A stretch of DNA of 59,002 nucleotides from Thermoproteota archaeon (GTDB taxonomy: Archaea; Korarchaeota; Korarchaeia; Korarchaeales; Korarchaeaceae). A model generated the notes under the pieces. The model was not told the DNA's origin. It worked only from the letters and a program-made list of their open reading frames with translations, and searched no databases. The stretch lies in NCBI GenBank assembly GCA_015522685.1, contig WALU01000016.1, positions 1-59,002 of the forward strand, written 5' to 3'. Of the stretch, positions 3,825 to 59,002 are shown piece after piece (position 1 is the first letter of the stretch; every line of letters starts with the position of its first letter). The translations under genes and the position numbers were made by a program.

Positions 3825-5033
3825 ATGAGTTACCTCAAAGTTTCTAAATATAATAAGCTTCCAATGGATCTACAGCCAATTGAAATAGTGGAGAGAAAAG
3901 GGAGAGGGCATCCAGACACCATCACAGATGGTATAATGGAAAGAGTAGCCTTAGAACTCAATAAAGAGTATCTTAGGAAATTCGGTGGGATACTTCATTA
4001 CAATGCTGATAAATCACTCCTTGCAGCTGGTGCTACTAAGCCTCAATTTGGAGGTGGTAAGGTATTGGAACCAATGCTTATAGTGTTTGGCGATAGAGCA
4101 ACAACCTCCTTCGCTGGTGAAACCATAAATCTCGAGAACATTGTAGTAAATGCTGCAAAAGGATGGATAAGAGATAATCTGAGGTTTGTAAACCCAGATG
4201 AACATGTAAAATATCAAATAGAGCTCAAGCATGGAAGTGCTGAATTAACCGACATTTTCAGAAGAGAGAAAGGCCTTATGGGAGCTAATGATACATCCGC
4301 GGCTGTAGGATATGCGCCTCTATCAAGAACCGAAAGAATTGTTCTAGAGACAGAGAAATTCCTGAATTCCCATGGACTCAAGAAAGATTTTAAAGAGACA
4401 GGAGAAGATATCAAGGTTATGGGAAGCAGAAGTAATAATCACTTAGACCTAACCATAGCCCTAGCTTTTGTAGATCGCTTTATTTCGAATGAATCTGAAT
4501 ACTTTAGAAGTAAACAGGAGGTTCTTGAGAGATTAACTTCCTTTTTGAATGATAAATTTTCGAATGATTTTGAGAAAATTGATGTACACGTGAATACTCT
4601 TGATGCTAGAGGTAGGGGAGTCCAAGGAGTCTATCTGACCGTATTAGGCACCTCAGCTGAAGGTGGGGACTCGGGTCAGGTGGGAAGAGGAAATGGGGTG
4701 AATGGAGTAATCCCATTGATGAGGCCACGTAGTTCAGAAGCGGCAGCGGGTAAGAATCCGGTAAGTCATGTAGGTAAAATATACAATGCATATACCCATG
4801 AGATAGCAAAGAGGATAGTAGACGAGGTAGGTGAAGTCCAAGAAGTCTATGTGTGGCTTCTAAGCAAGATAGGATGGCCCATAGATAAGCCAGCTTTAGC
4901 GGCAGCAGAGGTTTACACAAGAGCTGATTTCTCTGAAATAAAGAAACAGGTAGAAGAGATAATAGGAGCAGAACTGGAGAATATGAGGGATTTTGTTAGT
5001 AGGTTGATAGATGGCATGGTAAAGGTTTACTGA
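3825..5033 (+). CDS. mat: Archaeal S-adenosylmethionine synthetase
   Basis: EIVERKGRGHPD, ANDTS, GEDIKVMG, GDSGQVGRGN and AGKNPVSHVGKIYN; GGTGA SD upstream. Confidence 0.96.
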   Translation: MSYLKVSKYNKLPMDLQPIEIVERKGRGHPDTITDGIMERVALELNKEYLRKFGGILHYNADKSLLAAGATKPQFGGGKVLEPMLIVFGDRATTSFAGETINLENIVVNAAKGWIRDNLRFVNPDEHVKYQIELKHGSAELTDIFRREKGLMGANDTSAAVGYAPLSRTERIVLETEKFLNSHGLKKDFKETGEDIKVMGSRSNNHLDLTIALAFVDRFISNESEYFRSKQEVLERLTSFLNDKFSNDFEKIDVHVNTLDARGRGVQGVYLTVLGTSAEGGDSGQVGRGNGVNGVIPLMRPRSSEAAAGKNPVSHVGKIYNAYTHEIAKRIVDEVGEVQEVYVWLLSKIGWPIDKPALAAAEVYTRADFSEIKKQVEEIIGAELENMRDFVSRLIDGMVKVY

Positions 5034-8592: not shown

Positions 8593-11310
8593 TTAATCAC
8601 TAACATGCTCTTCCTCATCTAATATCTCGGTCCTCGAAACATCTCCAGATTTACTAACTAGTATTGAATGGGTAGCAATATCCCTAAATCTAGCTGAATG
8701 AGTTACAATTATCATCTGAGGGATATCAAGGGAAGATATAGCCTCTATTAGAGCATTTATCCTCTCCTCGTCTAGGTAAATGGTTGGTTCATCTAAAACA
8801 AATGTTTCCACACTGGCCATAAGGTAGCGAGCAATTGCAAGTCGTAGAGCGAGGGTTAACGATATCCTCTCCCCACCACTCAATCTATCAAAAGAAAAAG
8901 TAGGTTTTCCTCTCCTCAAATGAGGGGTAAAATCATCATCAAGAGTTATAGAATCATAATCAAAATTGAAGGAGCTGAATATACTGTTCAATTCCCTCTC
9001 TATTGAGGGTCTAGCTTTCTCCCTTATTAGCGTCTGTATCCCTCTATCTCTACTAAAAACTTCTCTAATCTTAGCAAGTTTGGATCTAAAGTTACTCAGA
9101 TTTTCTCTCTTAGCTCTCAGCTCCTTAAGCTGTTCTTTCTTACCTCTCAGCTGATTAGCTCTGGATTCCAGCTCCTCAATCTTACCAAGTATCTTGCTTT
9201 TTTCGGCTAAAATATTGTTAAATCTCTCTTCTAGTCTCTCTAACTCTTTTCTCAGGTTATACAGCCTACTGGGATCATAATTGAGGGAGGAAATCTCATC
9301 TTTTATGGATCTAATTTCCTTATCTATGCCATTAAAGTTCGCTTTCATCTTCTCTAGATCTCCTTTTATTGAATCTCTTGTAGATAGCAAGCCTCTCAGC
9401 TTTTGCACCTCTTTAAAAGCAGTGAGGGATTTGTTATACTCTTCATCTATAGATCCCTCACTTAAACCAATAGCCAATAGATCTTTCCTGATCTTTTTCT
9501 CCATATTCTTCAAGCTCTCTCTAAGGGAATCAATATTCTCCTCGCTTAACTCCTTTTTAATTTCCTCTATGATAGGTAAAAGACCCTCTTTCTTGGAAAT
9601 TTTGCTCCTTATCTCATTTACCCGTTGTATTAATTCATCTAGACAGGCTAACTTATCTTTTAGTGGCTTGGTAAGGGAGCTTATTCTATTCACCTCTTTC
9701 TCAACCTTCTCCAACTCCTTGGCGCTGCTCTCCAGTTCCTCCTTTGACCTATGAGCTTCAGAGAGGTTGAAGTCTTTCAACTTGCTCAGTCTACTCTTCA
9801 TCTCAGATATTCTACTAGCTAAAACTTCAATATCTTCCTTTGTGCTGTCATATTTCCCTTTCAGGGACTCTACTTCATTTAGTAATCTTCTCCTTAATCT
9901 TTCAATGGACTTTTTGTCCAGCTTGGAACCACAGAGGGGACATTTATTTATATCACCATTTAGATCTTCCAAATATCTCCTATTATGCTCTATTCTCTCA
10001 TATAACTTGGATTTCTCATCTTTGAGAGAGGATAAGGAGAACTCCAATCCATTAATACTAGTTTCTAAAGATCTGATCTCTCCGGTTATGATGCGATCTA
10101 TATCCTTGGATTCATCCAGCTCAAGACCTATCAAGCCAGACAATTCAGCTAGCGAGCTTCTGAACATATTTCTCTCCTCTATGATGTGTTCTCTGATCCG
10201 AGACGCTTTCTCCTCCAATATCTTTAGCTGCTCCTCTAATCTTATTAGCTCATCCTTTAGAGAGCTAAGCTCCCTGAACTTGATCTCTAAAGCTTCTCTC
10301 TCTTTTTTCAGGCTGCTAAGAGATGATATTCTCTTCTCATATGAGTTCAACTCATCTTTTCTCTTCTTCAAGTAGTTCAGTCTATCTCTGAGCCTCATGA
10401 TCCTAGTTATCTTCTCTTTAACTCCAGAGATTATCTCATATTTGGAAGCTATAGCTTCCAAATCAGGTAGCTTGACGAGCACCTCTTCAATTCTAATAAG
10501 CTCCTTCCTCTTACTCTCAATCTCCTTAGCTAATTGACTTGCACTTACTGAAAGATTTTCTTCCTTAGCTTTCAAGCTCATATATCTTTTATCTAACTTA
10601 TCCAGACTAGAAATTTCACTCTTAAGTGAATATATCTTAGAATTCAGCTCCTTCTCCTGTTTCTCTAGGATTCCTTTCTTCTCCTTTAGCCTCTCCAGTT
10701 CTTCTAGTAAGGAGGCTTCCTCCTTGAATACATCGCCAATTCCTTTCATTTCGCTTTCAATTGAATATAGCTTGGAGTCTAACCTACTGATTGCGTTCTT
10801 TAGCTCCTCCCATATACCTTCTAATGCTTCCATTCCCAGTAACCTGCCTATAAGCTCCTTCCTCTTGGCTGGCGCTTGCTCTAATAGATCAGCTATCTCT
10901 CCTTGCCTCACATATATAGCCTGAAGGAATGTCTCCCTTCCGACCCCTAAGAGGGCCTCTACTTGCTTCGATACTTTACTCTGATCCCTCTGAAGCAGTT
11001 TTCTTTGGTTCCCCAATAACTCATAGAGGAGAGCTGATGATCTGCCTTCTCTTTCCTTTTCCCTTACAATTAGGTAGTGATGGCCATTTAGCTCGAACTC
11101 TAGCTCGACCTTCAGTCCAGGAGATCCTGTTCTTATAATGCTTTCTTGATTCCTGACGCTCCTTGGGTATAATGCATAAGAGATCGCTTCTAGTATGGTC
11201 GTTTTACCAGCTCCATTTTCCCCTATTATTGCGTTTATTCCATCAGAAAATGTAAGTTCCGTTCCAGCATGAGAACCAAAATTGTGAAGGGAAATCCTCC
11301 TTATCCTCAA
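8593..11310 (-). CDS. rad50: DNA double-strand break repair ATPase Rad50
   Basis: GENGAGKT, RQGEI Q-loop, long coiled coil with CPLC zinc hook, LSGGE, LDEPT and VTH. Confidence 0.95.
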   Translation of the reverse strand: MRIRRISLHNFGSHAGTELTFSDGINAIIGENGAGKTTILEAISYALYPRSVRNQESIIRTGSPGLKVELEFELNGHHYLIVREKEREGRSSALLYELLGNQRKLLQRDQSKVSKQVEALLGVGRETFLQAIYVRQGEIADLLEQAPAKRKELIGRLLGMEALEGIWEELKNAISRLDSKLYSIESEMKGIGDVFKEEASLLEELERLKEKKGILEKQEKELNSKIYSLKSEISSLDKLDKRYMSLKAKEENLSVSASQLAKEIESKRKELIRIEEVLVKLPDLEAIASKYEIISGVKEKITRIMRLRDRLNYLKKRKDELNSYEKRISSLSSLKKEREALEIKFRELSSLKDELIRLEEQLKILEEKASRIREHIIEERNMFRSSLAELSGLIGLELDESKDIDRIITGEIRSLETSINGLEFSLSSLKDEKSKLYERIEHNRRYLEDLNGDINKCPLCGSKLDKKSIERLRRRLLNEVESLKGKYDSTKEDIEVLASRISEMKSRLSKLKDFNLSEAHRSKEELESSAKELEKVEKEVNRISSLTKPLKDKLACLDELIQRVNEIRSKISKKEGLLPIIEEIKKELSEENIDSLRESLKNMEKKIRKDLLAIGLSEGSIDEEYNKSLTAFKEVQKLRGLLSTRDSIKGDLEKMKANFNGIDKEIRSIKDEISSLNYDPSRLYNLRKELERLEERFNNILAEKSKILGKIEELESRANQLRGKKEQLKELRAKRENLSNFRSKLAKIREVFSRDRGIQTLIREKARPSIERELNSIFSSFNFDYDSITLDDDFTPHLRRGKPTFSFDRLSGGERISLTLALRLAIARYLMASVETFVLDEPTIYLDEERINALIEAISSLDIPQMIIVTHSARFRDIATHSILVSKSGDVSRTEILDEEEHVSD

Positions 11311-11313
11311 TTC

Positions 11314-12492
11314 TCATTCCTCCTCGGATAGTTTAAGCACTTCCTTAACGAAGGTATCTCTTCTCTTTCCTTCCCTATACCATAAATCGAAAATCCGCAA
11401 GGAGAGTCTTTTCTCATCTTCATCCAACTTCATGGATCCTATGGCATTTCGAACTAGCTCCTCCACACTAATCCCCGCAATAATATCCTTCTCCTCCACA
11501 TCGGCAGATTCTCTGAACTCTCTAACATTCACATGGAGGGACTTCTCCAATAAAGCTCTCCTAATCTCTATTGTAGGAAGGCCTGCCCTCAAATCGCCAG
11601 TTACTTGCACCTTACCTATAATAACAGGCTTCTCTTTGTAGCCGGATGCATTTTTTGAAAGTCTCTCTATCAATCCGTAAAGATCCTTTGTGTCTCCTAT
11701 TTTCTCCGAAAAGGAAATGAAAGGCCTTGTCTTTAACTTGATTTCTCTTATACTAATTCCATCTCGATCTATGTCAACTGATAGTATATACTTTCCCTCT
11801 CTAACGTATGTAGATACTTCTCTAGTCTCTATAACTTCCGTGGATCCGGAATATGCAAATACTCTCCTCCCACTCCTCCTCACAACCTTGTTGTGATAGT
11901 GGCCCATGGCCGTGTAATCGAAGGAGCTCCTAGCTATATCAGAAAAGTCTACCTCTGGATAAATAGCCTTAATCATACCTTTAACTCCTTGGTGTATCAT
12001 GAGAACAGAAGGACAGCTGCATAGATTCTTAGCTTTTTTATTTAGGTTTTCTACGGCATCAGCGACCCTTACTCCTCTACTCGCGTAAGGAATACCGGCT
12101 ACAACTAAATCCCCAAATCTCTTCAATCTAGGACTCAGTCTAACAAAGAGATCTCCATACCCTATCCTGTTAAAGATTTTCTCTAAGTTAATGAGAGGAG
12201 AAGTAATCCTCTTCCTAACAGTATCTGCTCCTAGCTCGTGATTCCCCTCTATTATAGCTATGGGTACTCCTTCCTCCAAGACCTTCAGGAATCCTTCGAA
12301 AGCCCTAACGAAAGCCCTTGGATGAGGTCTATAGCTATCGAATAGGTCACCTGTGTGCACTATTAAGTCAGGCTTCTCGCTTAAAGCTAGATCTATTGCT
12401 TGATTAAATGCTCTATACAGATCTTCCTCCCTTTCAGCTAGATGAAACTGAGCCTTTCCCAAATGATTATCTGATATATGTATGATCTTCAT
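11314..12492 (-). CDS. mre11: DNA double-strand break repair nuclease Mre11
   Basis: Phosphoesterase motifs SDNHLG, GDLFD, GNHE, HQG and GHYH; adjacent to rad50. Confidence 0.94.
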   Translation of the reverse strand: MKIIHISDNHLGKAQFHLAEREEDLYRAFNQAIDLALSEKPDLIVHTGDLFDSYRPHPRAFVRAFEGFLKVLEEGVPIAIIEGNHELGADTVRKRITSPLINLEKIFNRIGYGDLFVRLSPRLKRFGDLVVAGIPYASRGVRVADAVENLNKKAKNLCSCPSVLMIHQGVKGMIKAIYPEVDFSDIARSSFDYTAMGHYHNKVVRRSGRRVFAYSGSTEVIETREVSTYVREGKYILSVDIDRDGISIREIKLKTRPFISFSEKIGDTKDLYGLIERLSKNASGYKEKPVIIGKVQVTGDLRAGLPTIEIRRALLEKSLHVNVREFRESADVEEKDIIAGISVEELVRNAIGSMKLDEDEKRLSLRIFDLWYREGKRRDTFVKEVLKLSEEE

Positions 12493-12493
12493 T

Positions 12494-14116
12494 TTAGTCG
12501 CCTATAGAGCTATAATACTCATCTGGAGTGGCACTAAGCCTCTTTCTCAATCCCTCTCTCCACATCTCATATGCTTTCAAGCTTTCTCCTCCTCTTTTTC
12601 CTTTAAAGAAGCGAACTTTTACTAAGGCAGGGATCTTCACCATGGGTCCTACAACGATAGCCTCACCAACGTTGAGAGAGGGAAGATAAGAGATCATTTC
12701 TTCGCTTAGAAACTCCGTTGCTCTTCTTATGTAAGCCTGGTCATCAGGTTCAACCACACGGAGGATTATCTTATTTACCATTTGTGAGAGTACATCTGAG
12801 TTAAGACGCTTAGGTCTCTGGCTAACCAAGCAAAGTCCTACTCCAAATTTCCTTCCTTCTTTTGCTATAGAGCTTGCTGCTTGGGACGTGTAAGTATACT
12901 CTACTGAAGGGATGAGTGTATGAGCCTCCTCCAGCACAGCCAATACCGGTGTGGGAAAATCAAGGTAACCTCTACCAATTATTTTAGCTTTTGCTCTGTA
13001 GAGAATGGTATAAAGAGTTTTTCCCACTACCACATCTGTAAGATCCGAATCTAATTGGCCTAAATCTACTATCAGTAATTTTCCATAATTAAGATGATCT
13101 ACTGGCTCACCGGCGGCCGGTTTTAGCACTCTATCATACTTTGTCCTAATGAAGTCAACTTTGGCTAGAAGGCTTTCTATGCTTCCCCTATCATTAGATG
13201 AAAATTTAAGGAGATACGGATCATCCTCATTATTCTTCTCTTTCATAAGGGAAAGCTTAACTAATGCATGTATTCCGGCGAGCAGATCATCTCTATCTGC
13301 TCTTAGCTCAGCTTTATCCAAATATTCTCCGAGCTTCTCCCTAATGAGGAGTTCCTTAGCGGTTCTAAATGCAGCTTTTAGGTAAATAAATTGCTTTGGA
13401 GCATTATCATATGTTATCTTCATGAGCTTTCCTAATTCCTCTACTGACAGGGTGTTAGGATCCAGAATAGGATCTATAGTCTCTATTTCACAGTGGGGGC
13501 AGTCTAAAGTCATGCCGGCATATTCAGAGTGAACATCAAATAGAATGGCGACACCTCCCATTCTAATAATCTCATATAGAATTACAGCTACGGAGTTGGA
13601 TTTTCCTCCACCTGTAACCGCAAGTATGGCGAGATGCCTAGAAATGAGTTCATTTGGATCTAGATGGATAGTAACGTCTTCTCTAGTTAGGAGGTTCCCC
13701 AATTTTATTCCCTCTTTATCAGGAGGGGGAGCGAATATCTGCCGAAGCAGCTCTGCCGGGGCTCTTTTTACTAGAGCGCCCGTAGGCGGTGGTGCTCTAG
13801 GCAATCCAGCAAGCTTTTTACTCTTAAGCTTACCTATCATCCTTATCGTGGCTTTTAACCAATCAGATGGAGAGCCAACTACCTCGAGAATTGTGTCATA
13901 GTAATTAGCTTGAAGGAGATCACTTCTAGCTAATTCAAGGGCTCCTCTTACCACGTTACTAATCATCCCTAAGAGATCAGTTTCATCTCCTTCTACTACA
14001 ACATAATCTCCCACTTTAGGAACGACTCCCTGATAAGAGATCATATCAGCTTGAACAGGAGTAGAATTAGGTGCTATTCTCCCCAAAACATCATTCTCCA
14101 AGGATCTCCCTCCCAC
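12494..14116 (-). CDS. herA: HerA DNA translocase/helicase
   Basis: RHLAILAVTGGGKSN, LEEAH, EGRKFG and SQRP; operon context. Confidence 0.93.
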   Translation of the reverse strand: MGGRSLENDVLGRIAPNSTPVQADMISYQGVVPKVGDYVVVEGDETDLLGMISNVVRGALELARSDLLQANYYDTILEVVGSPSDWLKATIRMIGKLKSKKLAGLPRAPPPTGALVKRAPAELLRQIFAPPPDKEGIKLGNLLTREDVTIHLDPNELISRHLAILAVTGGGKSNSVAVILYEIIRMGGVAILFDVHSEYAGMTLDCPHCEIETIDPILDPNTLSVEELGKLMKITYDNAPKQFIYLKAAFRTAKELLIREKLGEYLDKAELRADRDDLLAGIHALVKLSLMKEKNNEDDPYLLKFSSNDRGSIESLLAKVDFIRTKYDRVLKPAAGEPVDHLNYGKLLIVDLGQLDSDLTDVVVGKTLYTILYRAKAKIIGRGYLDFPTPVLAVLEEAHTLIPSVEYTYTSQAASSIAKEGRKFGVGLCLVSQRPKRLNSDVLSQMVNKIILRVVEPDDQAYIRRATEFLSEEMISYLPSLNVGEAIVVGPMVKIPALVKVRFFKGKRGGESLKAYEMWREGLRKRLSATPDEYYSSIGD

Positions 14117-15212
14117 TTATCTCCACTATCTTAAGATTTCTTGCTAAATGAAGCATCATCTCCTTACTTATCTTCGTCATTTCATGAACCACCCTTAAGT
14201 GGTAGGGATACCCCCTCACAGAGTATCTAGCAAGGGAGCTGAGTAACATAGCTACCTCCTCATAATTTAAGCTCCCTACAATCTCTACCCTGAGTGGGTT
14301 AGCGTTCTTCTCTAACCTCACATAAGTGAGTGTTATTGGATAGCTATCTCCTATGCCAGAAAACTCCGGGAAGGTTAATTGAGTCACCTTTGGTAATAAA
14401 AAGCCTCTTTGATTAGAGTATCTTCTAATGATCTCTAAATCCGGCGTCCTATCGTCGAAATAGGAACTACTGCTTGATCTCTTAGCTATAGCTATTATGA
14501 TTGTTCTTCCTCCCTTAAGTAATTTGTTCAAACTCAGTAGTTTCTCATATCCTTCTATAAAGGCCTTGGCTCGCATGATCTCATCCTTCTTAGGGCTTCT
14601 CCTTAGCTCTTCCTCAAGTATGGATCCTACGATTGATCCTATAAGGTCCGATACCTCAGCTTGGTGGGTGATGGAAGATAGGCCATCGGTAAGGTCGTAC
14701 TTCAATTGATTCATCACCTCTTCTAGAATCCTTCTCATGTGATAAGGAACCCTCTGACCATAGGGAGTTGATAATCCTCTATTAATAGAGGCTATGAAAG
14801 AACCATCCATGAGAAGGATCTCAGAACCTAGATCTAGGGACTTCAGGCCCATTTTAACTTCCATCGTTTCTCTGCAAAACGAAATTCTCTCCTTGAGATA
14901 ATAGTCTTCAAGTACTCCTATCTGGTACTTTCTGGCCCTCACAGCTTCCTCATCTTTAAAGAAGAGGGATGCTGATGTTATGAACAGTACCTGCCCTAGT
15001 GTAAGATAATCGCTGTTATTGCTTCCATCTACCGCCGCTATCTTAGAGTATTCCGGCTCAGGTAACTCGGATATCCAGTTCCTCCGTAACATGGATATGG
15101 AGACTCTTTCTTTAATGTCATCATCTGTAGCTAGAAAAGAAGCTACATAGCTTTTAGCCCTCACAACAGCTTCCTCAATGGATTCAAATGGTAATTCAGG
15201 CATCAGGTGCAT
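14091..15212 (-). CDS. nurA: NurA nuclease
   Basis: AAVDGS, LMDGS and GYPYHL-x-x-VH motifs; first gene of the operon. Confidence 0.92.
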   Translation of the reverse strand: MHLMPELPFESIEEAVVRAKSYVASFLATDDDIKERVSISMLRRNWISELPEPEYSKIAAVDGSNNSDYLTLGQVLFITSASLFFKDEEAVRARKYQIGVLEDYYLKERISFCRETMEVKMGLKSLDLGSEILLMDGSFIASINRGLSTPYGQRVPYHMRRILEEVMNQLKYDLTDGLSSITHQAEVSDLIGSIVGSILEEELRRSPKKDEIMRAKAFIEGYEKLLSLNKLLKGGRTIIIAIAKRSSSSSYFDDRTPDLEIIRRYSNQRGFLLPKVTQLTFPEFSGIGDSYPITLTYVRLEKNANPLRVEIVGSLNYEEVAMLLSSLARYSVRGYPYHLRVVHEMTKISKEMMLHLARNLKIVEISGREILGE

Positions 15213-19513: not shown

Positions 19514-19757
19514 TAATCTAACTTTGGGATAATAACTTTCACTTTGGCCTCCTTTACTCCATCGACTTTTTCCGCTGCCCTTTTTATTGCTAAGACTAGA
19601 AAGTTGAGAAAAGGGCATTTAAAACAAAATCTATCCAAACTACCTCATTCTCTTCTCTAACATTCCTTACTAAACCAGCCTCCACAACATCCTCCCTCAG
19701 CTCAGAATCCCTTATCTTCTTGAGTGCCTCCCAAACTCTCCTTTCAACATCATTCAT
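19510..19757 (-). pseudogene. DUF59/SufT (MIP18-like) Fe-S assembly protein, split by a frameshift
   Basis: Not in the ORF track. Frame 0 reads [33 protein letters not shown]...WIDFV and stops at 19596. The -1 frame continues KCPFLNFLVLAIKRAAEKVDGVKEAKVKVIIPKLDY*. Confidence 0.75.
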
Positions 19758-20838
19758 CGGTTTTTTCCCTCAGTACAAAGTCTAAGGGAAATACTTGCAA
19801 TACTTTCCTATTATCTGTGGGTATAACTTCAACGAGCCTTCCAATGAGACCAAGGTCCTTTATTTCTTCTGCTATCTCTTGGAACTTATACGCATCTATG
19901 AGAAGTTTTTCCTCCCTAAGAATTCCCCCATACTCTGTGTAGAGGTACATAAGAGTCTCTTTAGGTCCTTGGACCTCGCCATAAATAAGTGTACCCTCAT
20001 CAGTGGGAATTTCATACTCACGTGCGACATTACCTGATCTTCTTGTCCATCTCATTCTAACTTGGTATTCCTTCTGGAGAGCAGGACAAAAGTATCCCAT
20101 TATTGAAGTTTCCTTTTCTATGAACCTGAGGACGTCTATTGCAGCTTCTCTGCTCTCCAAAACTGCGACCTCGCTGTCAGGTTTTGGCCTAAATCCCATA
20201 GATAAAAGTCTTTTTCTATTAGATGGGGTGAATTCAAGCTCATTTAAATTCATGAAACTTGCATCTATTTTATCTAGGTAAGAAGCAAGTTCCTTAAGGG
20301 ATCTTATCCACTTTTTCCCTGGTATAGAAGGCATCTCAGCTCCCACGTAGAATCCCATATCCAAAGCCATCTTAACTTTCTTCCATAGCCTTTTATCCCA
20401 TACATGGAATCTTATCTCATCTAATCCAGCTTTAATAAGCATTTTTAAGCTACTCTCGTTTATTTTCCAAGCATTAGTATACATATGAATATGAAAACCC
20501 TTGCCGAATCGGTCCTTTAACAGTTCAATATAATGAGCTACCTTATGCAGTACAAGAGAGGGCTCTCCTCCTGTTATTCCAGCACCTAGGGCGGAAATTA
20601 ATTCTGCTTCTCTTATTATATCCTCTTCCTTTCTAACTGGATTCTCATCCACCATAACTAGATTCTTGTTTCTCCTCCAATTCGATATGGTGCAATAAGG
20701 GCATCTCTCATATAGAGGACACTTTCCAGTGACGAAAAGGACTAATTTAGCTCCTCTCCAGCAAAGATCGCATCCTCTGCTCCATCCCCTAACCCTAAGT
20801 GCTCCTAAAGGAAGCTCTTCCATACCTATCCACGCCAA
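19750..20838 (-). CDS. Radical SAM protein (COG2108-like)
   Basis: GCDLC[14 protein letters not shown], [29 protein letters not shown] and NLNELEF. Confidence 0.85.
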
Positions 20839-22064
20839 CTGGAGAGATATCTTTCCTGCTCTGGAGCCAAATTGTCAATCTCTATACCCATTGATTTTAG
20901 CTTAAGCCTAGCTACTTTCTCGTCTATGTCCCTGGGAACTGGAAGAACTTTAGGAGGTAGGTTCTTTCCTTCCTTCACTAGATATTCGACAGCTAAAGCT
21001 TGATTGGAGAAGCTCATGTCCATGACTTCACTTGGATGTCCCTCGGCAGCTACCAAATTAACTAACCTTCCTTCTCCTAGCAGATATACCCTTCTACCAT
21101 TAGGCAATAGGTACTCCTTAACGTTCTCTCTTATCTGTCTGCTGGATAGCGCCATAAGCTCAAGATCATTTACAGAGACTTCTACATCAAAATGACCGGC
21201 ATTGGCAAGGATAGTTCCCTCCTTCATAAGACTTATATGTTCTGCTTTTATGATATCCTTATCACCAGTTGCTGTCACGAAGATATCACCAATCTCAGCC
21301 GCTTTCTTCATGGGCATAACTATATAGCCATCCATTGCTGCGAGGAGAGCTTTTATCGGATCAACTTCTGTTACTATCACCTTGGCTCCCATCCCACGAG
21401 CTCTCATTGCAATACCTCTTCCTACATGTCCATAGCCAGCAACTACAAACCACTTCCCAGCTATCATGATATTCGTGGCTCTTAGTATGCCATCTATGGT
21501 ACTCTGACCGGTTCCGTAAACATTATCAAAGTTCCACTTTGTCTCAGCATTATTTACTGCTATGAGGGGATATCTCAAGGCCCCTTCATCGGCCAATGAT
21601 CTTATCCTTATTACTCCCGTAGTGGTTTCCTCAGTCCCTCCTAAAATATTGGAAGCATATCTCTTTTCATGGGCCATTACGGTTATATCTCCTCCATCAT
21701 CCATAGTTATCTGGGGATTACATGATAAATTGCTCTCTATAGCCCTATAATAATCATTCTTAGACATTCCTCTCCAAGCATACACATCTATACCCTCATC
21801 AACAAGGGCAGCGGCCACATCATCTTGGGTAGAAAGCGGATTCGAGGCAGAAAGGCAAACTTCGGCCCCCCCCTCCTTCAAAGTTAGGGCTAGTACTGCC
21901 GTCTCCTTGGTGACATGCAGACATGCGGAGACCCTCACATCCTTTAATGGCTTTTCGCTGGAAAACCTCTCAGCTATGCTAGAAAGAACTGGCATATGAG
22001 CCTTAGCCCACTCAATCTTCAATCCTCCCTTCTCAGCCAACTTATGGTCCTTTACTCTCGGCAT
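20826..22064 (-). CDS. ahcY: Adenosylhomocysteinase
   Basis: [38 protein letters not shown] and GRLVNL...[11 protein letters not shown]. Start taken at ATG 22064. Confidence 0.97.
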
Positions 22065-22099
22065 AACGCATCGATGTTCTAATCTTTTGGGAAATAAAA

Positions 22100-22321
22100 T
22101 CACTTCCTTTTAGTTATCTGAATGCTCCAATAATCTCCCTTCCTAACTACCCCTTTAAGGATGTGACCCGTCCTCTTAACCCACTCATACACGTCATCTA
22201 TTGAATTCCTGTCATTAACGAGGAAATTCAGAGTTTCTCCAGAATCTGCTTTCTTAATGGTCTTAGCTATCTGTATTATTGGATACGGACTTCTCTTACC
22301 TCTAAGGTCCATGGTCCTCAT
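22100..22321 (-). CDS. TusA/SirA-like protein lacking the catalytic cysteine
   Basis: DLRG-x-x-SPYP aligns to D-x-RG-x-x-CPxP; size and fold pattern fit TusA. Confidence 0.8.
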
Positions 22322-26410: not shown

Positions 26411-26469
26411 GCTACGAACTTGTGAACTAAATGTTAAATCCTTTTCCCAGCAGGAGTATTGGTGATTCC

Positions 26470-27792
26470 GTGGTTAGGAAAGTCATTATCATGGGGGCTG
26501 CTGGACGAGATTTCCACAATTTTAACGTCTTTTTCAGGGGTAATGAGGAATATAGAGTCGTAGCCTTTACGGCGGCCCAGCTTCCAGATATAGCAGGCCG
26601 GACTTATCCACCAGAGCTAGCCGGACGACTATATCCAAATGGAATACCTATCTTGCCTGAGGAGAAGCTTCCAGAATTGATAAGAGAGAATAATGTTGAC
26701 CTAGTTGTCTTCTCTTATAGCGATGTTTCCTATCAGTACCTGATGGAAAGGGCAGCTATAGCTCAGGCAAATGGAGCCGATTTCATGCTATTAGGTCCCA
26801 AGAGCACGATGCTGGAATCTAAAAAGCCAGTTATAGCTGTTACAGCTGTCCGGACGGGTTCTGGTAAGAGTCCTACAAGTCGGAGGGTATCCGAGATTCT
26901 CAAGGAGAAGGGCCTAAAGGTAGCTGTAGTGAGGCATCCCATGCCGTACGGTGATCTGAGAAAGCAGATAATACAGAAGTTCATGACATTGGAGGATCTA
27001 GATAAATATAATACAACTGTAGAGGAGAGAGAGGATTATGAGCCTCATCTGATTCTAGGGAATGTTGTATTCGCCGGTGTAGATTATGAGAAAATACTGA
27101 GAGAAGCCGAAAAAGAGGCAGATATAATCCTATGGGATGGAGGTAACAATGACTTTTCATTCTACAAGCCCAACCTTATGATAACTGTAGCAGATCCCCT
27201 TAGAGCTGGTCATGAATTAACCTACTGGCCAGGAAGTGTAAATATCAGAATAGCAGACGTAATTATAATAAATAAGATTGATACAGCCTGCTATTCTGAT
27301 ATATACGAGGTTCTAAGCAATGTTGAGAGGGTCAACCCCAAGGCCAAGATAGTGATGGCTGCAATGCCATACACAGTAGATAAGCCTGAGCTAATTGCTG
27401 GTAAAAAGGTGCTCGTGGTCGAAGATGGTCCTACGGTTACTCATGGTGAGATGGGATATGGAGCTGGATTCCTGATAGCAAAGAAACTTAACGCCGAGAT
27501 AATAGATCCTAGACCATATGCTGTAGGGTCTATAAAGGAGACCTATAAGAAGTATGCTCACCTAGAATCGGTCCTACCCGCCATAGGCTACAGCAATAGG
27601 CAGATGAGAGAGCTTGAAGAGACAATAAATGCGGCTCCAGTGGATGCTGTTATCCTAGGGACCCCAACAGATCTCAGTAGGTATCTAAAGATAAACAAGC
27701 CAGCGGCTCATGTTAAATATGAGATTCAGGAAATAGGTTCTCTCACACTCGACCAGATAATTAATGAGTTCCTTGGCAGGGTGGGGCTATGA
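26470..27792 (+). CDS. COG2403 P-loop protein (cyclic 2,3-diphosphoglycerate synthetase / arginine synthetase-like family)
   Basis: MGAAGRDFHNFN, AVRTGSGKS, RHPMPYG, EEREDYEPH, WDGGNND and VEDGPTVTHG. GTG 26470 follows a GGTGA SD. Confidence 0.85.
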   Translation: MVRKVIIMGAAGRDFHNFNVFFRGNEEYRVVAFTAAQLPDIAGRTYPPELAGRLYPNGIPILPEEKLPELIRENNVDLVVFSYSDVSYQYLMERAAIAQANGADFMLLGPKSTMLESKKPVIAVTAVRTGSGKSPTSRRVSEILKEKGLKVAVVRHPMPYGDLRKQIIQKFMTLEDLDKYNTTVEEREDYEPHLILGNVVFAGVDYEKILREAEKEADIILWDGGNNDFSFYKPNLMITVADPLRAGHELTYWPGSVNIRIADVIIINKIDTACYSDIYEVLSNVERVNPKAKIVMAAMPYTVDKPELIAGKKVLVVEDGPTVTHGEMGYGAGFLIAKKLNAEIIDPRPYAVGSIKETYKKYAHLESVLPAIGYSNRQMRELEETINAAPVDAVILGTPTDLSRYLKINKPAAHVKYEIQEIGSLTLDQIINEFLGRVGL

Positions 27793-30168: not shown

Positions 30169-30243
30169 CGGACCCGGGGGGACTTGAACCCTCGACCTGC
30201 GGCTCCGAAGGCCGCCGCTCTATCCTTGCTGAGCTACGGGCCC
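30169..30243 (-). tRNA. tRNA-Arg (anticodon UCG), no intron, CCA not encoded
   Basis: Cloverleaf with acceptor GGGCCCG/CGGGTCC, anticodon arm GCGGC-CTTCGGA-GCCGC and T-loop TTCAAGT. Confidence 0.95.
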
Positions 30244-34104: not shown

Positions 34105-34434
34105 GTGGGAGGATATAAAGGATTGCTGAGTTTCCGATCTTCATCCTCCGAGGATGAGGAAGGAGAAGGTAAACGTATCGTGGTGAGGAGGCTTGTTCTT
34201 GACGTTGTTAAACCACATAATCCTAATATAGTAGACATGGCTGAGGGTCTCTCGGAACTTAAGGGAATAAAGAAAGTGAATATAGAGGTAAAAGATTACG
34301 ACTCTACTATTGAGAGATTAAAGATAATATTAGAAGGGGAAGATCTAGACTACGAGGAGATAGTGAAAGTCATTAGGTATTATGGAGGGAATGTTGCGAG
34401 CCTCGATGGCGTCACAGTCGAGTCAGAGGAATAA
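34105..34434 (+). CDS. DUF211-family protein
   Basis: RRLVLDVVKPH-x-P...L-x-I-x-LEG-x-DLDY-x-x-I...GG-x-V-x-SLD-x-V. Confidence 0.8.
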   Translation: MGGYKGLLSFRSSSSEDEEGEGKRIVVRRLVLDVVKPHNPNIVDMAEGLSELKGIKKVNIEVKDYDSTIERLKIILEGEDLDYEEIVKVIRYYGGNVASLDGVTVESEE

Positions 34435-34441
34435 TAATCGA

Positions 34442-35764
34442 ATGTTGTTCTATATAGAGACGCATGGTTGCGCTATGAATAGATCTGATTCTCAAATAAT
34501 GGATTCACTTCTCAGAAGAGCTGGTTGGAAGAGAGCCTCAAGGCCAGAAGATGCAAATGTAATAATACTCAATACCTGCAATGTGAAAATGCCAACAGAG
34601 CAAAGAATGATTCATAGAGCTAAGGTTCTCTCTAGGATAGCTCCTCTAGTTGCTGCTGGCTGTATGGCTAAGTCCCAACCGGAACTCCTAAGATCCTATG
34701 CAAAAGCGTTGGTGGCTCCAAGGGCTATAACTCATATAGTTGAGGCTGCATATTCTGCACTAAAAGGAACTAGAGCTGAATTCTTGAATTGGGAGACGCC
34801 TAACAAGGCTGAATTTAATAGAGAGCCAACTGGATTTATCGGGATAGTACCTATAGCCGAGGGATGCTTGGGCTCATGTACCTACTGCATAACGAAACTT
34901 GCTAGAGGGCGCTTGACAAGCTTCCCCGCCAAAAGCGTTATTCGTAGGGCTAAAGAGTTCCTGAATAAAGGAGCTGTGGAGATATGGCTCACAGCAGAAG
35001 ATACTGGAGTATATGGATGGGATAAAGGAGAGAATCTGCCCATGCTTCTCAATAAGATATCTTCCTTGGATGGAGATTTTAGGGTAAGGGTAGGGATGAT
35101 GACGCCCGATTCTGCTTTAAAGATAGTAGACAGCTTAATAGACTCATTTAAGGATAAAAAAATGTACAAATTCTTTCATATACCAGTTCAAAGTGGATCT
35201 GATAAAATACTCAAACTTATGGGAAGGAAATATACTGCAGAGCAATTCATGAGACTTATCTATGAAATAAGAGAGCACTTCGATGATGTTACCATAAGCA
35301 CAGATGTGATAGTTGGATTCCCAGGCGAGGAAGAAGGTGATTTCCAAGATACTCTGAAGCTACTAGAGGTAACTAAACCAGATGTCGTAAACTTGAGTAG
35401 GTTTGGGCCTAGGCCCAAAACTTTAGCAGCGAATATGAAGCAGCTTTCTCCTAAGGTCATTAAGAGGAGAAGCAAGGAAGCCGCAGCAATCATAGAGGAA
35501 ATAAAAGAGAGGAATAATGAGAGATTTCTTGGTAGAAAATTAACTGTATTAGCTTCAGAGGTTACATCTAAGGGAGTTCAGGGGAGAACCCAATGCTATA
35601 AGCCAGTAGCTCTTGGAAATGTTACTCCCGGGGTATTCTACAGGGTAAAAATAGTAGACTTCAGAGGGAATTACCTGATTGGGAGATTAAGAGAGAAAGA
35701 AGGAAGGCGGACAGGAATCGCTGTTAGATGTAGAACTAGATTATCTCGGGATTTACCTAGTTAA
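34442..35764 (+). CDS. tRNA t6A37 methylthiotransferase (MiaB-like, archaeal e-MtaB)
   Basis: ETHGCAMN, NTC-x-V, AGCMA, CLGSCTYC, HIPVQSGSD, DVIVGFPGE and a TRAM-like end. Confidence 0.92.
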   Translation: MLFYIETHGCAMNRSDSQIMDSLLRRAGWKRASRPEDANVIILNTCNVKMPTEQRMIHRAKVLSRIAPLVAAGCMAKSQPELLRSYAKALVAPRAITHIVEAAYSALKGTRAEFLNWETPNKAEFNREPTGFIGIVPIAEGCLGSCTYCITKLARGRLTSFPAKSVIRRAKEFLNKGAVEIWLTAEDTGVYGWDKGENLPMLLNKISSLDGDFRVRVGMMTPDSALKIVDSLIDSFKDKKMYKFFHIPVQSGSDKILKLMGRKYTAEQFMRLIYEIREHFDDVTISTDVIVGFPGEEEGDFQDTLKLLEVTKPDVVNLSRFGPRPKTLAANMKQLSPKVIKRRSKEAAAIIEEIKERNNERFLGRKLTVLASEVTSKGVQGRTQCYKPVALGNVTPGVFYRVKIVDFRGNYLIGRLREKEGRRTGIAVRCRTRLSRDLPS

Positions 35765-43630: not shown

Positions 43631-44515
43631 TCACACTGATATTAACTCCACTCTTAGCTGCTTCCTGACCATTTTCAGAAGTCTATCCATATCGGAGGGC
43701 ATTATTAAGGCTCCCGCTGCATTCTTATGTCCTCCTCCTCTAGCCTCTACAACCTTTAGTGCAGATAGAGGGGAATTGGGCTGGCTCCTAATGGATATCC
43801 TAAAAGCACCATCAGATCCAGACGTTATGGTACCAAAGAGGAGGTATCTTTTAGCGGCTAGCTGAATAATGGGAACAAGGTATGCAGGAATGCTTTCTAA
43901 CTTCACCAGGAGAGCTTCTCCTCCACTCATAGACGTTATCTTCTCAATGAGATCTCCATATTCCTTCTCTATCAGATGAGTTTCCCTTCTTATTGAGGGT
44001 AAATCAACTAAATCACTGCTTGTTGCTGGCGGATGAAGAAGGAGATCTCTAGATACCTTAGCTAAGTACTTCCTCTTCACTTTGAATATCTTTCTTATGG
44101 CTGAAGTGAAAAGGGCAGAAGAAAGATCCAAGTTCCCAGTATCTGTTTCATCAACCAGGGTTATTGTCCCCTCATAGTTCTCAATCGATGGCTCCTGCCC
44201 CTTTACTAGATCGTAGAGGAGTCGAGCTGTAGATGGATACTCTGGCTTCAAATAAGCCCTTTGGACACGATTAGTGAGGAGAATATTAGATTCATGATGA
44301 TCTACTAAGATTCTTGCTCCGCCTTGCGGCGGAGGGAGGTCTAAGACTATATCGTAGCCTTCTTCTATTGTTTTTATCTCATACGGAGCCGTAAACTTGA
44401 GCTTTAATTTACTTGGGTGCAGCAAGATCACAATAGCTGCTGAAAATAATCCATCCAGATCTTCGCCATGGCTTACAATGGAGAGTTTTTCACTCTTAGA
44501 TATGAACTCGAACAT
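43631..44515 (-). CDS. DHH/DHHA1-family phosphoesterase
   Basis: H-x-x-DLDG, VLDLP, VDHH, DTG and GGGHKNAAG. Start taken at ATG 44515. Confidence 0.87.
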   Translation of the reverse strand: MFEFISKSEKLSIVSHGEDLDGLFSAAIVILLHPSKLKLKFTAPYEIKTIEEGYDIVLDLPPPQGGARILVDHHESNILLTNRVQRAYLKPEYPSTARLLYDLVKGQEPSIENYEGTITLVDETDTGNLDLSSALFTSAIRKIFKVKRKYLAKVSRDLLLHPPATSSDLVDLPSIRRETHLIEKEYGDLIEKITSMSGGEALLVKLESIPAYLVPIIQLAAKRYLLFGTITSGSDGAFRISIRSQPNSPLSALKVVEARGGGHKNAAGALIMPSDMDRLLKMVRKQLRVELISV

Positions 44516-44581
44516 TAGAAATGCTCTCCTCGTTAGTATAGTTGGATAATGATTTAAAATATTAACATTAACAGTTACGGG

Positions 44582-45043
44582 ATGGGACGCAGGGTAGTCG
44601 TGGCGGGTACGTTTGATATAATTCATGAAGGGCATATTAAGATGCTATGGAAAGCGAAGGAAATCGCTGGAGATGATGGAGAATTAATTGTAATAATTGC
44701 TAGGGATGAAAATGTCAAGAGGTTCAAGGGAAGATCTCCTATAATAAGGGAATCATCCCGGGCTTATATAGTCAAGAGCTTCAAACCAGTTGATAGGGTA
44801 GTTCTGGGAGAGAAGGATCCCTTAGATTCCATAGTTAAGCTGAGACCTGATATTATCGTCTTGGGATATGATCAGTGGGCGGGAGAAAAATGGCTGAAGG
44901 AGGAGCTGAAGAAAAGAGGTTTAGAAGTAGAGGTAATTAGGCTTCCTAGGTTTGGAGATAGCTCCTCTTCTTTCATAATAGATAGAGTCATCAAGCTGTT
45001 TTGTTCATTTAAGAAGGCTGAGGATAGATCTAGAGACCTCTAG
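44582..45043 (+). CDS. ribL: Archaeal FAD synthase (cytidylyltransferase family)
   Basis: VAGTFDIIHEGH, IIARD, PDIIVLGYDQ and SSS-x-I. Confidence 0.85.
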   Translation: MGRRVVVAGTFDIIHEGHIKMLWKAKEIAGDDGELIVIIARDENVKRFKGRSPIIRESSRAYIVKSFKPVDRVVLGEKDPLDSIVKLRPDIIVLGYDQWAGEKWLKEELKKRGLEVEVIRLPRFGDSSSSFIIDRVIKLFCSFKKAEDRSRDL

Positions 45044-56045: not shown

Positions 56046-56122
56046 TGGCGCCCGGGCTGGGATTTGAACCCAGGTCTGAGGCTCGACAGGCCCCAATGCT
56101 AGCCGGGCTACACCACCCGGGC
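56046..56122 (-). tRNA. tRNA-Asp (anticodon GUC), CCA encoded
   Basis: Acceptor GCCCGGG/CCCGGGC followed by GCCA; anticodon arm GGGGC-CTGTCGA-GCCTC; T-loop TTCAAAT. Confidence 0.96.
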
Positions 56123-56294
56123 ACTGGGTAGAGGAGGCTCCTGCCTATTATAAATATTTCACTGGTACCTCTTAAGGTAACCTCATAGATCTTCTTCGTC
56201 TTCAAGGAATTCCCCTAATAATGGTGACTCAGAAATTCCCAGTCACTTTACCTCCTATATTATTAATGGAAAACTTGGCAGAGAGAATGAAAAG

Positions 56295-56625
56295 AGGGTG
56301 AAGGTCGCATGTCTAGCACAATTTTTACTAGCCGCTTTAGCGGTCCTTAGAATTATCTCTATGCTGTTTCCTCTTAGCTTCGTCTCCTGAAGCTATGTTC
56401 GTGGCATAGGGAGCGCATAACAATAGAATTATATCATTAGCTTCGGCCTCTTCTCTTATTCAAGTGAGCAATTCTTCATTTTTGGATATAGATCTTACGA
56501 CTTGATATTCCATTCCACCGAATTCCATGCTCCTAAGATATGAGAAAGCCTTCCTTCCTCCCTTCTTAGAAGCATCCATCGGATAGCCTGCAGGTCCGGA
56601 TCTTATCTTATCTTAGTTTATCGAT
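56295..56625 (-). pseudogene. Decayed archaeal endonuclease IV (Nfo-like) fragment
   Basis: Manual translation KIRSGPAGYP...YLRSM...MEYQVVRS...*IREEAEANDIILLLCAPYATNIASGDEAKRK matches the IRFGPAG/ME-x-x-FVRG/HAPY-x-x-NL pattern. It contains a stop and frameshifts and is 3'-truncated. Boundaries approximate. Confidence 0.75.
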
Positions 56626-56703
56626 TAATACCTCGCATCCAGTTGAGACTATCTTTTCGCTTGGTAGCAGTCAATCTCTTGATCTACAGGGGGTCATATC
56701 ATG

Positions 56704-56719
56704 TAGAAAGGTTATATAT
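56704..56719 (+). promoter_or_regulatory. BRE plus TATA box (TAGAAAGG-TTATATAT) for the putative ncRNA
   Basis: Purine-rich BRE immediately 5' of TTATATAT, centred about 25 nt upstream of G56741. Confidence 0.7.
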
Positions 56720-56740
56720 GCTCCAACTAGTTCATATACT

Positions 56741-56875
56741 GGGGATCGCCTAGTCTTGGCGGGCTTAGCCCAACTGAGGGCTATGGCTCTATGGATGTGG
56801 AAGGGGTCCTTAATTGACCCCGATCTTAGGCGTCCATTGGGCGCCTACCTCTGAACGTAAAGCTGGGCGATCCCC
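56741..56875 (+). ncRNA. Unidentified 135-nt structured RNA
   Basis: GC-rich island with a 14-bp closing stem and four internal hairpins. All non-Watson-Crick pairs are G-U on the + strand. Promoter upstream and pyrimidine tract downstream. Confidence 0.7.
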
Positions 56876-56919
56876 CTGTCTACTTTCTTCTCAATGGTAA
56901 GATAGTGGATCCTAAGGCC

Positions 56920-57664
56920 TGATGTATTAAGGATATTTGATAACGAAGAAAAGAGATGGCCCCCCGTCACCTTAGCATATAAGATGTAGCTGAACCTAGA
57001 ATTATAAGAGTCTTAATTCGCATGAGGGAGGAATCACCGATAACTCTCCCTAGAACGGTCTTCTTCTTGAGATTAACTTCAAATGAGCCTTCTGCCAAAA
57101 ATGGGGCGTTATTTCATGGTTTTCTCTTAGATATGCCTACAAATGAGAAATACATGGCTAGTACCATAAATAGGCTTGAGAGAGCCTAAAAACATTAACT
57201 TAGTAGAAGAACCTATTCCAAATATACACGTAATACTAAGAGTTCTTAAGCTAGTCGAGAAGGATTTTCTGGTAATTTGGGACTCTAATGCATATATGAA
57301 TGAAAAACAACGAAGCTATTTCTTGGTATAACCGATCTCTAACTATCTAATTAATTTTCAAATACTGGAGTTATAATTGCACTAAAGTATATAATCAATT
57401 CCTAAACATAGAGATGTCGTAACTAGAAATCTAATAATAAGGCATTTGGCTCTCTCGGGACATATAGATTGATATACGAAACCAATATTAAGTGGATATC
57501 CTTAGAATGACTGATGCTTTAGTTAATATAATTGGATTAATACATCGAATACATGGCAGATAAGTATCTTGAGATAAATAGGATAGGAGAAGTCAAGGGA
57601 GAAGATCAGAGAAACATATAGATTTGCAGAGAGCCTAGGTCTTAGGCGGAGATCTATAAGTTAG
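56920..57664 (+). pseudogene. Heavily decayed PflX-like (COG1313) radical SAM gene
   Basis: Collinear fragments across frames: MREESPI...TVFF, CQKW, NINLVEEPIPNIH, VIWDSNAYM, FKYW, VVTRNLIIRHLALSGHID*YTKPIL, ADKYLEINR, FAESLGL. Many stops and frameshifts; 5' boundary approximate. Confidence 0.8.
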
Positions 57665-57670
57665 CTAATT

Positions 57671-58334: not shown

Positions 58335-59002
58335 ATGATCTCTATAATAGAAATCGAAACAGTAAGTCAAGGAGAAGGGATCATCCCTTTTGCAGGACCT
58401 CCTTTAAGAAAAGCGCTCTTTAAAGCAGTTTCTTCTCAGAATTCGCTCCTAGCTAGGGCCTTAGAAATGTCATCAAACAAAATATTTGTGGAAGCTCTGC
58501 TTAGAGATAAAAAACAACTTCCTTGCGGCTTTCAAGATGAACTTGTATATATAGGCTCCGAGTATAGAGGATCTATAATAATATTTGATAACAGCACAAT
58601 TGCGGATGCTGTGAGGAGGTGGGTATATAAGAAACCTCTTATTAGAATAAAGGATGTAACATTTAAGATAGTTGGACATTCCTACCAGGAGATAAATATA
58701 GAGGACTTTATACAGGATCAACCATGTAAAAATTTTAGGATAAGGTTTCTTACTCCTACTTGCTTTAGAAGGTCTTCCACCCCTTACTGCTACCTATATC
58801 CTAATTCAAAGATAATAGCATCATCGGCATCATCTGTTTGGAATGCTCTTTCCCCTAAAAAAGGGCCTGAAACAAGAATAATGTCTATATGGACTGATCT
58901 AAGTGTCATTGAAACAGGATATGAGATATGTACTACAAAACCCATCGAGATAAGTGAGGGAAGAACACTAGTTGGTTTCATGGGGTGGGTGAATTACAAG
59001 GT
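58335..59002 (+). CDS. cas6: CRISPR-associated endoribonuclease Cas6 (3' partial)
   Basis: Not in the ORF track because there is no stop in the window. Open frame from ATG 58335 with FRIRFLTPTCFR, YLYP, S-x-x-x-x-WNA and VGFMGWVNY; the Gly-rich loop lies beyond the window. Confidence 0.8.
   Translation, partial: MISIIEIETVSQGEGIIPFAGPPLRKALFKAVSSQNSLLARALEMSSNKIFVEALLRDKKQLPCGFQDELVYIGSEYRGSIIIFDNSTIADAVRRWVYKKPLIRIKDVTFKIVGHSYQEINIEDFIQDQPCKNFRIRFLTPTCFRRSSTPYCYLYPNSKIIASSASSVWNALSPKKGPETRIMSIWTDLSVIETGYEICTTKPIEISEGRTLVGFMGWVNYK

Follow-up and report, generated by a model that had tools for sequence, protein, structure and literature searches.

What is an intact, strongly folded element doing between two genes that are themselves dead? 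The question arises near the end of a 59,002-nucleotide stretch of contig WALU01000016.1 from a Thermoproteota archaeon (called the window in what follows), for which a reading of the letters alone (the original prediction) had proposed a structured RNA with its own promoter inside a decayed region, and had named as checks a covariance scan against Rfam, a homologue search in related archaea, a covariation test, and a look for the dispersed copies expected of a miniature inverted-repeat transposable element (MITE). Here we analyse this element, an RNA of 135 nt on the + strand (56741-56875; covariance-model hits add one C and end at 56876), which is almost certainly a genuine, conserved and undescribed RNA.

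The window copy folds on the + strand with a minimum free energy of -73.5 kcal/mol, against -50.2 +/- 3.9 kcal/mol for 200 dinucleotide shuffles (z = -6.0, equalled by 0 of the 200), the - strand folding less well (-58.5 kcal/mol, z = -4.0). Its closing helix, P1, pairs 56741-56754 with 56862-56875 over 14 bp including two G-U pairs, as had been proposed. Our model of the whole RNA holds 37 pairs in P1 and four hairpins (P2, P3, P4 and P5), all 37 of which are standard in this copy, and five of them are G-U pairs that turn into A-C mismatches on the opposite strand, which bears out the early remark that the imperfect pairs are all G-U wobbles of the + strand. Together the fold and the G-U pairs indicate an RNA read from the + strand and not a DNA palindrome. 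The element has a G+C content of 59% against 36-41% in its flanks, and it occurs as a single copy in its own 1.48-Mb assembly (G000).

How widely is this RNA distributed? A DNA search found the element within the same genus, where a covariance model made from 18 genus copies (R1), which gives the window copy 126 bits, identifies one copy in 19 of 21 genomes, its own genome counted. For the other four genera we used the downstream radical S-adenosylmethionine (SAM) gene as a handle, and located upstream of its orthologues a G+C-rich element that spans 132-159 nt and is laid out alike. A second covariance model (R2), made from 22 sequences representing all five genera (g1-g5) of the archaeal family, scores the window copy at 108 bits and finds exactly one sense-strand copy in 33 of the 36 family genomes, among them genomes outside the model (G045, G048, G050, G041 and seven of the genus); the three family genomes without a match are 70-72% complete. 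The homologue search in related archaea was therefore positive across the family. Beyond it our searches were of samples, so that absence holds for the genomes and loci searched: R2 matched none of 7 genomes from four sister families of the phylum sample, none of 151 genomes of another archaeal phylum, and none of 25 loci of radical-SAM orthologues from other lineages, in a search that did match one family locus as a positive control. A pattern scan of metagenome contigs yielded 10 further loci, mostly from species already sampled, which brought no new orphan context and in which the radical-SAM gene follows the RNA in all eight contigs that extend far enough. As far as searched, then, the RNA family is confined to one family of uncultured archaea. 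For the organism itself, a tRNA G+C content of about 0.7 and the vent label of the run in which the sequence occurs suggest a hot habitat.

With these relatives aligned, the parts of the RNA can be told apart by how well each is kept. Following the 5' strand of P1 (56741-56754), the junction J1/2 (CTTGGC, 56755-56760; CCUUGG- or CCAUGG-like in relatives) leads into P2 (GGGC-TTA-GCCC, 56761-56771), a hairpin invariant in all 18 aligned genus copies and retained in the divergent copy G003 through a compensatory change of its top pair from C-G to U-A; a rival pairing of its GCCC strand with a downstream GGGCTA is possible and energetically preferred. The second hairpin of the original prediction (AGGGC-TATG-GCTCT, 56777-56790) can form in this copy but has not been maintained in relatives, among them the genus's second clade. 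The overlapping P3 (CTAT-GGAT-GTGG, 56789-56800) is the better kept of the two, a small variable hairpin that reads CCAC-NGAN-GTGG in the nearest relatives and has gained G-U pairs in the window copy by two C>T changes, and from genus to genus this middle region changes in both length and shape. P4 (GGGGTC-CTTAATT-GACCCC, 56803-56821), with 6 bp and a 7-nt loop ending in ATT, is the most conserved feature of the family, across which it keeps 6-7 bp, a loop of 7-8 nt and, in most copies, the AUU end. P5 (TAGGCGTCC-ATT-GGGCGCCTA, 56827-56847, 9 bp here) is built on GGCGTCC/GGACGCC within the genus; in G003 and other genera, complementary strands of a different sequence take its place. A pyrimidine-rich junction, J5/1 (56848-56861), which contains a conserved G-N-A-C and whose C-rich strand could in one clade pair with a G-run 5' of P4, returns to the 3' strand of P1 (56862-56875). 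Directly behind P1, the pyrimidine tract that had been noticed after the element corresponds to a T/C-rich run (56876-56892) which might, to judge from its composition, act as a weak archaeal stop signal. In most relatives this place is taken by CCUCC repeats and the radical-SAM gene's Shine-Dalgarno hairpin, both described below. Hence three of the four hairpins first proposed (56761-56771, 56803-56821 and 56827-56847) are kept in relatives and the fourth is not.

The covariation test was positive. In the family alignment (A3, 22 sequences) we tested the 22 pairs of P1, P4 and the base of P5, and found 88.8% of cells paired compared with 80.7% in shuffled alignments, changes on both sides in 11 of the 22 pairs compared with 6.2 in shuffles, and a covariation score of 0.272 compared with 0.139 (reached in 0 of 500 shuffles) and with at most 0.098 when partners were slid by 1-3 columns, so that P1, P4 and P5 all covary. 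RNAalifold applied to the same alignment recovers 16 pairs, nine of them with compensatory changes. In P1, for instance, two columns exchange G-C for A-U and a further one C-G for U-A; in P4, 94.7% of cells are paired and three of the six pairs have changed on both sides, while the T of its loop and flanking G and C residues are invariant in all 22 sequences. Conservation has a different look at the two depths. Among the 18 genus copies many unpaired bases never vary, including those of the P2 loop, a GGAA and the P4 loop with its ATT end; across genera the junctions vary and the stems, above all P4 and the core of P1, are the best conserved.

Does the element belong to an RNA class already described? 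With Rfam 15 at gathering thresholds, the whole window contains only two tRNAs (30169-30243 and 56046-56122) and the element is unmatched; relaxing the search to E<=10 over 56600-57000 produced three chance hits, all far under their cut-offs, and nine homologous loci from five genera gave tRNAs only at E<=1. The scan against Rfam thus returned no family for the element in the window or in these loci. In keeping with the original view that motifs of tRNA, 5S rRNA, signal recognition particle (SRP) RNA, RNase P RNA and guide RNAs are lacking, ARAGORN and covariance models give no tRNA (RF00005) at the element, and the other housekeeping RNAs are accounted for at other places: 5S rRNA (RF00001) scores above its cut-off elsewhere in G000 and in four of four relatives, with the element unmatched at E<=10; archaeal RNase P RNA (RF00373) lies elsewhere in all five genomes inspected, with 164-180 bits and none at the element; and archaeal SRP RNA (RF01857) lies elsewhere in five of five, with 149-185 bits. 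C/D box small RNAs (sRNAs) are defined by C (RUGAUGA) and D (CUGA) boxes near their ends. Two CUGA sequences occur here, are not kept in relatives and come without a C box, and the best Rfam snoRNA match, with 19 bits where the cut-off is 70, does not fall on the element. In an H/ACA sRNA an ANA box directly follows the lower stem on its 3' side, and one upper stem carries a K-turn; in our RNA the three bases behind P1 vary (CTG, GCA, ACC, CCA and others), and above P1 lies a junction of several hairpins. Nor is a Y RNA indicated, since the Ro/TROVE protein (PF05731) is found in 0 of the 36 family genomes by a search whose positive control was detected in two known genomes.

We also considered identities outside the catalogue of RNA families. 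Against a MITE or other insertion element, G000 has a single copy, as has each of the 33 genomes, and the locus never changes, so the look for dispersed copies returned a single copy at a fixed site. A precursor-peptide open reading frame (ORF) fails on two grounds: in nine of 30 homologues every one of the three + frames is interrupted by stops, and the indels between clades shift the frame. A K-turn, mimicry of a T-loop or anticodon loop in P4, a bulge-helix-bulge motif in P1 and loop-loop pairing between P2 and P4 were looked for by eye and are unsupported by the alignments, and the P4 motif occurs once per genome in five of five genomes, with an additional one-mismatch place in G019 only. 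A literature search by protein names and broader RNA-motif topics, whose scope did not extend to supplements that possibly list archaeal motifs, listed no paper for the protein names and, for the broader topics, only general motif-discovery papers with no description of the RNA. Among the sequencing runs searched, the stretch occurs in a single one, a DNA run labelled hydrothermal vent metagenome, and in no RNA run. The RNA belongs to no described family.

If it is a new RNA, how is it expressed? Upstream of the element lies a sequence resembling a B recognition element and TATA box, GAAAGG-TTATATAT (56705-56719, + strand, with TTATATAT at 56712-56719), about 26 nt before the first G of the RNA, where the original prediction had placed such a promoter at about -25. 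All 30 homologues, those of GC-rich genera included, have a TATA-like box about 29 nt upstream, a pure A/T heptamer whose first base stands 26-37 nt ahead of the first paired base of P1; it reads TTATATA, TATTTAT, TTTATTA, TTTAATT or TTAAAAT and is usually preceded by a purine-rich stretch. The window copy and its nearest relative (G019) have almost the same promoter block. Archaeal promoters stand at a usual distance from the start of transcription, and by this spacing the predicted start would fall at the foot of P1. Just ahead of P1, at 56731-56739, one clade of the genus has another TATA-like motif (TTCATATAC here, CTATATAG in relatives), which the other clade lacks.

The position of the RNA relative to its neighbour is also fixed. 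In each of the 32 other genomes with the RNA, the radical-SAM ORF lies directly downstream on the same strand, and counting the window the RNA adjoins this gene or its remnant in 33 of 33 genomes, never standing elsewhere. The gap between P1 and the ORF is 12-36 nt in g1, g3 and g5 and about 110-120 nt in g2 and g4. Because 12-36 nt leave no space for a second promoter, the RNA must, as the gene order and promoter positions have it, be the 5' leader of the radical-SAM mRNA in most relatives. The proposal of independent transcription accordingly holds in part, in that the RNA has its own promoter on the + strand, and needs amending in part, since in most relatives it would be no simple independent gene and instead the leader of the radical-SAM gene. 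In most of g1 the spacer carries two CCUCC repeats, anti-Shine-Dalgarno-like and resembling the 3' end of 16S rRNA, that pair with the GGUG(A/G) Shine-Dalgarno (SD) sequence of the radical-SAM gene (for example at 1677-1705 of locus L009 and 1621-1640 of L017); the resulting hairpin has 7 bp in one g1 clade and 4 bp in another. This CCUCC tail is gone from the window copy and is largely different in G019. Alternative pairings of this putative expression platform with G-rich strands appear possible by eye. The longer spacers of g2 (L085, L087, L089 and L090) and g4 (L092) consist of about 110-120 nt of extra G+C-rich, apparently structured sequence before the start codon.

In this genome the RNA has lost that gene, and we therefore turn to the two neighbours as they stand in the window and to the selection that has acted on the sequence between them. 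Aligned with the intact gene of G019, the downstream sequence (about 56899-57665, + strand) is a dead remnant of the PflA-like radical-SAM gene, which has lost its SD and ATG, carries deletions of ~38, ~225 and ~33 nt together with frameshifts, and shows 32% differences; upstream, on the - strand (about 56159-56621), lies the remnant of a dead EndoIV-like (AP_endonuc_2) gene with a deletion of ~390 nt, its start codon lost and 35% differences. The RNA between them is 89% identical to that of G019. No second radical-SAM copy of this type was found in the 92%-complete assembly, and elsewhere the window is densely filled with ordinary coding sequence. The decay first described around the element is therefore real, and consists in detail of what is left of the RNA's own downstream gene and its divergent partner.

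Polarising changes with three outgroups, we counted 137 in this lineage and 64 in the sister lineage over 866 sites of the radical-SAM remnant, 72 and 32 over 438 sites of the EndoIV-like remnant, 46 and 32 over 496 sites of an intact left-flank block (tRNA-Asp, a PUA gene and the 3' part of the EndoIV-like remnant), and 8 and 1 over 136 sites of the RNA. The eight changes of the RNA on this branch compare with 27.5 expected at the per-base rates of the pseudogene, and with at least 14.7 expected after gene death (P = 0.027). The nature of the changes points the same way. Seven of the 15 RNA differences from G019 fall in stems, and all seven keep or create a standard pair, where a neutral stem change drawn from the pseudogene substitution spectrum would keep pairing with p = 0.389 (P = 0.0013 for seven of seven). 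The same spectrum, read on the + strand of the adjoining pseudogene, has G>A changes (50) in excess of C>T changes (34), so the restriction to G-U pairs is not a product of mutational bias. Judged by its substitutions, the RNA fold is still under purifying selection in this genome though the radical-SAM and EndoIV-like genes are dead, and the contrast originally drawn between an intact element and two eroded pseudogenes stands.

The gene that the RNA precedes is known to us from its intact relatives, which encode a protein of 355 aa with the Pfam domains PF04055 and PF13353 and weak NrdG/PflA-type NCBIfam hits. Its fold model (pLDDT 84.7) comes closest to the E. coli PFL-activating enzyme (3c8f, TMt 0.74), and a profile search of PDB chains agrees on a PFL-activase-like protein; neither the model nor the PDB searches gave a recognisable RNA-binding domain. 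The family is widespread in archaea and bacteria. One orthologue, in a Desulfurococcaceae metagenome-assembled genome (locus L097), is preceded at about 1065-1135 by a different G+C-rich, hairpin-like element of ~70 nt that gives no R2 match. On the other side of the RNA, the divergent EndoIV-like AP_endonuc_2 gene lies upstream in 12 of 12 family loci and in 0 loci outside the family. That the two genes form a divergent pair around the RNA in all 12 family loci (L003-L019, L084-L096), and that both are dead in this genome, suggests that the EndoIV-like and PflA-like radical-SAM proteins work together.

What might such an RNA do? We tentatively favour a sensor or leader RNA that influences the translation of the radical-SAM gene. 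The folded domain would offer a site at which a trans factor, whether protein or small ligand, lands or is sensed, and occupancy by this factor would set radical-SAM translation, the SD sitting behind P1 in the small hairpin with the CCUCC repeats. The RNA would also act without the ORF, for instance by binding or titrating the same factor in trans, a role that we infer from the selection kept on its fold where the radical-SAM gene is dead.

A number of observations weigh against this mechanism. With 10-17 GC-rich bp, P1 is too stable for a switching helix, and conservation across genera resides mainly in stems (the P1 core and P4), the junctions and the number of hairpins varying in a manner that most metabolite aptamers do not show. 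Only in g1 is the SD-masking hairpin clear; it is weak (4 bp) in one g1 clade and is absent or different in g3 and g5, and in g2 and g4 a spacer of about 110-120 nt intervenes. The role in trans rests on one genome, in which the 8:1 asymmetry of changes relative to the sister copy (P = 0.063 against the intact-gene ratio) allows that some relaxation on the RNA after gene loss is possible, and the selection tests do not date the changes relative to gene death.

A serious possibility, though one we would sooner doubt than accept, is that the RNA is a stand-alone, stable non-coding RNA, probably part of a ribonucleoprotein (RNP), whose promoter the radical-SAM gene borrows by read-through, as happens with certain archaeal genes placed after tRNA or C/D sRNA genes, and that no regulation takes place. 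This would account directly for an RNA that is intact and fold-selected where the radical-SAM gene is dead, as well as for a spacer that varies from 12 to about 120 nt, and stable RNAs typically have, as here, a helix that joins the 5' and 3' ends right from the predicted start of transcription. T/C-rich tracts behind P1 in the window copy, in g3 and in G003 are also in its favour; against it, most of g1 has no clear oligo-T terminator, and the conserved CCUCC/SD hairpin sits directly behind P1. The conserved stem sequences suggest recognition by a protein, yet no candidate partner was found (Ro/TROVE in 0 of 36 genomes, and the P4 motif not recurring elsewhere), and it also speaks against this reading that the RNA is next to the radical-SAM gene, or what is left of it, in all 33 genomes and never stands elsewhere.

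That strict tie to one gene family, of the kind seen in orphan riboswitch candidates, would be natural if the RNA were a leader acting in cis only, as a riboswitch or as an element to which a protein binds, and the window copy a functionless relic yet to decay. The SD, ATG and CCUCC tail have indeed gone already, and the window copy has evolved faster than its sister (8 polarised changes against 1). We consider a relic improbable nonetheless, given that all seven stem differences keep pairing (P = 0.0013 under the pseudogene mutation spectrum), that changes are fewer than the neutral expectation (P = 0.027), and that the promoter has been retained while the flanking genes carry four large deletions.

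Alternatively, the very stable, GC-rich P1 at the 5' end could form a structural cap for the mRNA, which without sensing anything would protect it against 5'-3' exonucleases at high temperature or mark a processing site, in line with the hot habitat suggested by a tRNA G+C of ~0.7 and the hydrothermal vent label. We think this quite improbable: protection needs neither a conserved multi-hairpin architecture nor loop and junction nucleotides invariant in 18 of 18 genus copies, and it leaves the retention of the RNA without its mRNA unexplained. Finally, a DNA palindrome or MITE, a small ORF encoding a radical-SAM precursor peptide, or a divergent known RNA is contradicted and has next to no probability, for although a long inverted repeat flanks the element and small ORFs before radical-SAM genes are common in peptide-modification clusters, the element stands as one copy per genome at a syntenic site with G-U pairs on the + strand only, nine of 30 homologues are stopped in all three + frames and have indels that are not multiples of three, and tRNA, 5S rRNA, RNase P RNA and SRP RNA are all elsewhere with Rfam unmatched.

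Carried one step further, the sensor or leader reading leads to a bolder proposal that we regard as unlikely on balance but worth stating: that this is the first riboswitch-like or RNP-forming RNA class to have arisen in, and to be specific to, an archaeal lineage, which would gate a PflA-like enzyme in cis and work in trans, and so outlive its gene. If true, the ligand or partner of the RNA would reveal the role of a widespread radical-SAM family and of its EndoIV-like partner.

The window has further features away from the RNA. At its end, a Cas6-like CRISPR endoribonuclease gene (58335-59000, + strand; PF10040, E 9e-8) runs off the sequence, which suggests that a CRISPR-Cas locus starts just beyond it. 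A complete cluster of the HerA-NurA-Mre11-Rad50 type occupies 8593-15212 on the - strand, with SMC/AAA_23, Metallophos, HerA (DUF87) and NurA. Three other radical-SAM genes are present (2377-3438, -; 19750-20838, -; 34382-35764, +), together with an archaeal SAM synthetase and an S-adenosylhomocysteine hydrolase (3825-5033, +; 20826-22103, -). Two long ORFs, of 453 aa (26431-27792, +) and 334 aa (43631-44635, -), match no Pfam family at E<=1e-5.

How does the RNA compare with systems already known? Structured regulatory RNAs are very poorly known in archaea, and here the comparative support is strong, comprising 33 genomes, covariation and a conserved promoter. Like Hgc RNAs, which were reportedly found as G+C-rich RNA islands in the A+T-rich genomes of hyperthermophiles, and like the structural RNAs of thermophiles, our RNA stands out by composition, at 59% G+C against flanks of 36-41%; the Hgc families are in Rfam, however, and are unmatched here. 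Like Y RNAs, it measures ~100-150 nt, has hairpins inside a long terminal helix and keeps a fixed place beside one protein gene. It differs from them in that Ro/TROVE is lacking from 36 of 36 family genomes and in that the neighbour is a radical-SAM enzyme with a PFL-activase-like model (TMt 0.74 to 3c8f).

Within the archaea, the fluoride riboswitch of Thermococcus kodakarensis stood in 2021 as the one natural riboswitch that experiments had established (PMC8241225). The present RNA resembles it in being an archaeal 5'-leader RNA thought to act on translation. They differ in that the fluoride (crcB) motif, a small pseudoknot that bacteria have as well, is represented in Rfam, where our RNA is unmatched, and the present RNA is a lineage-specific, multi-hairpin junction.

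In function, the nearest parallels are the yjdF and nadA motifs of bacteria, which two reports present as orphan riboswitch candidates tied to a single gene family (PMC4793209, PMC6859854). As in those motifs, a conserved structured domain that covaries is nearly confined to the 5' leader of a single gene family, and as with yjdF the function of the downstream gene is unknown, so that a ligand cannot be guessed from the gene. Unlike either, our RNA is archaeal, occurs in one family of uncultured archaea and has no match in Rfam; its P1 of 10-17 GC-rich bp and a hairpin number that varies between genera set it further apart, as does its being kept where the gene is dead. This last difference amounts to a natural 'knock-out' in which the gene has died and the RNA has been kept, an unusual handle on such an RNA and one that argues it to be more than a passive leader.

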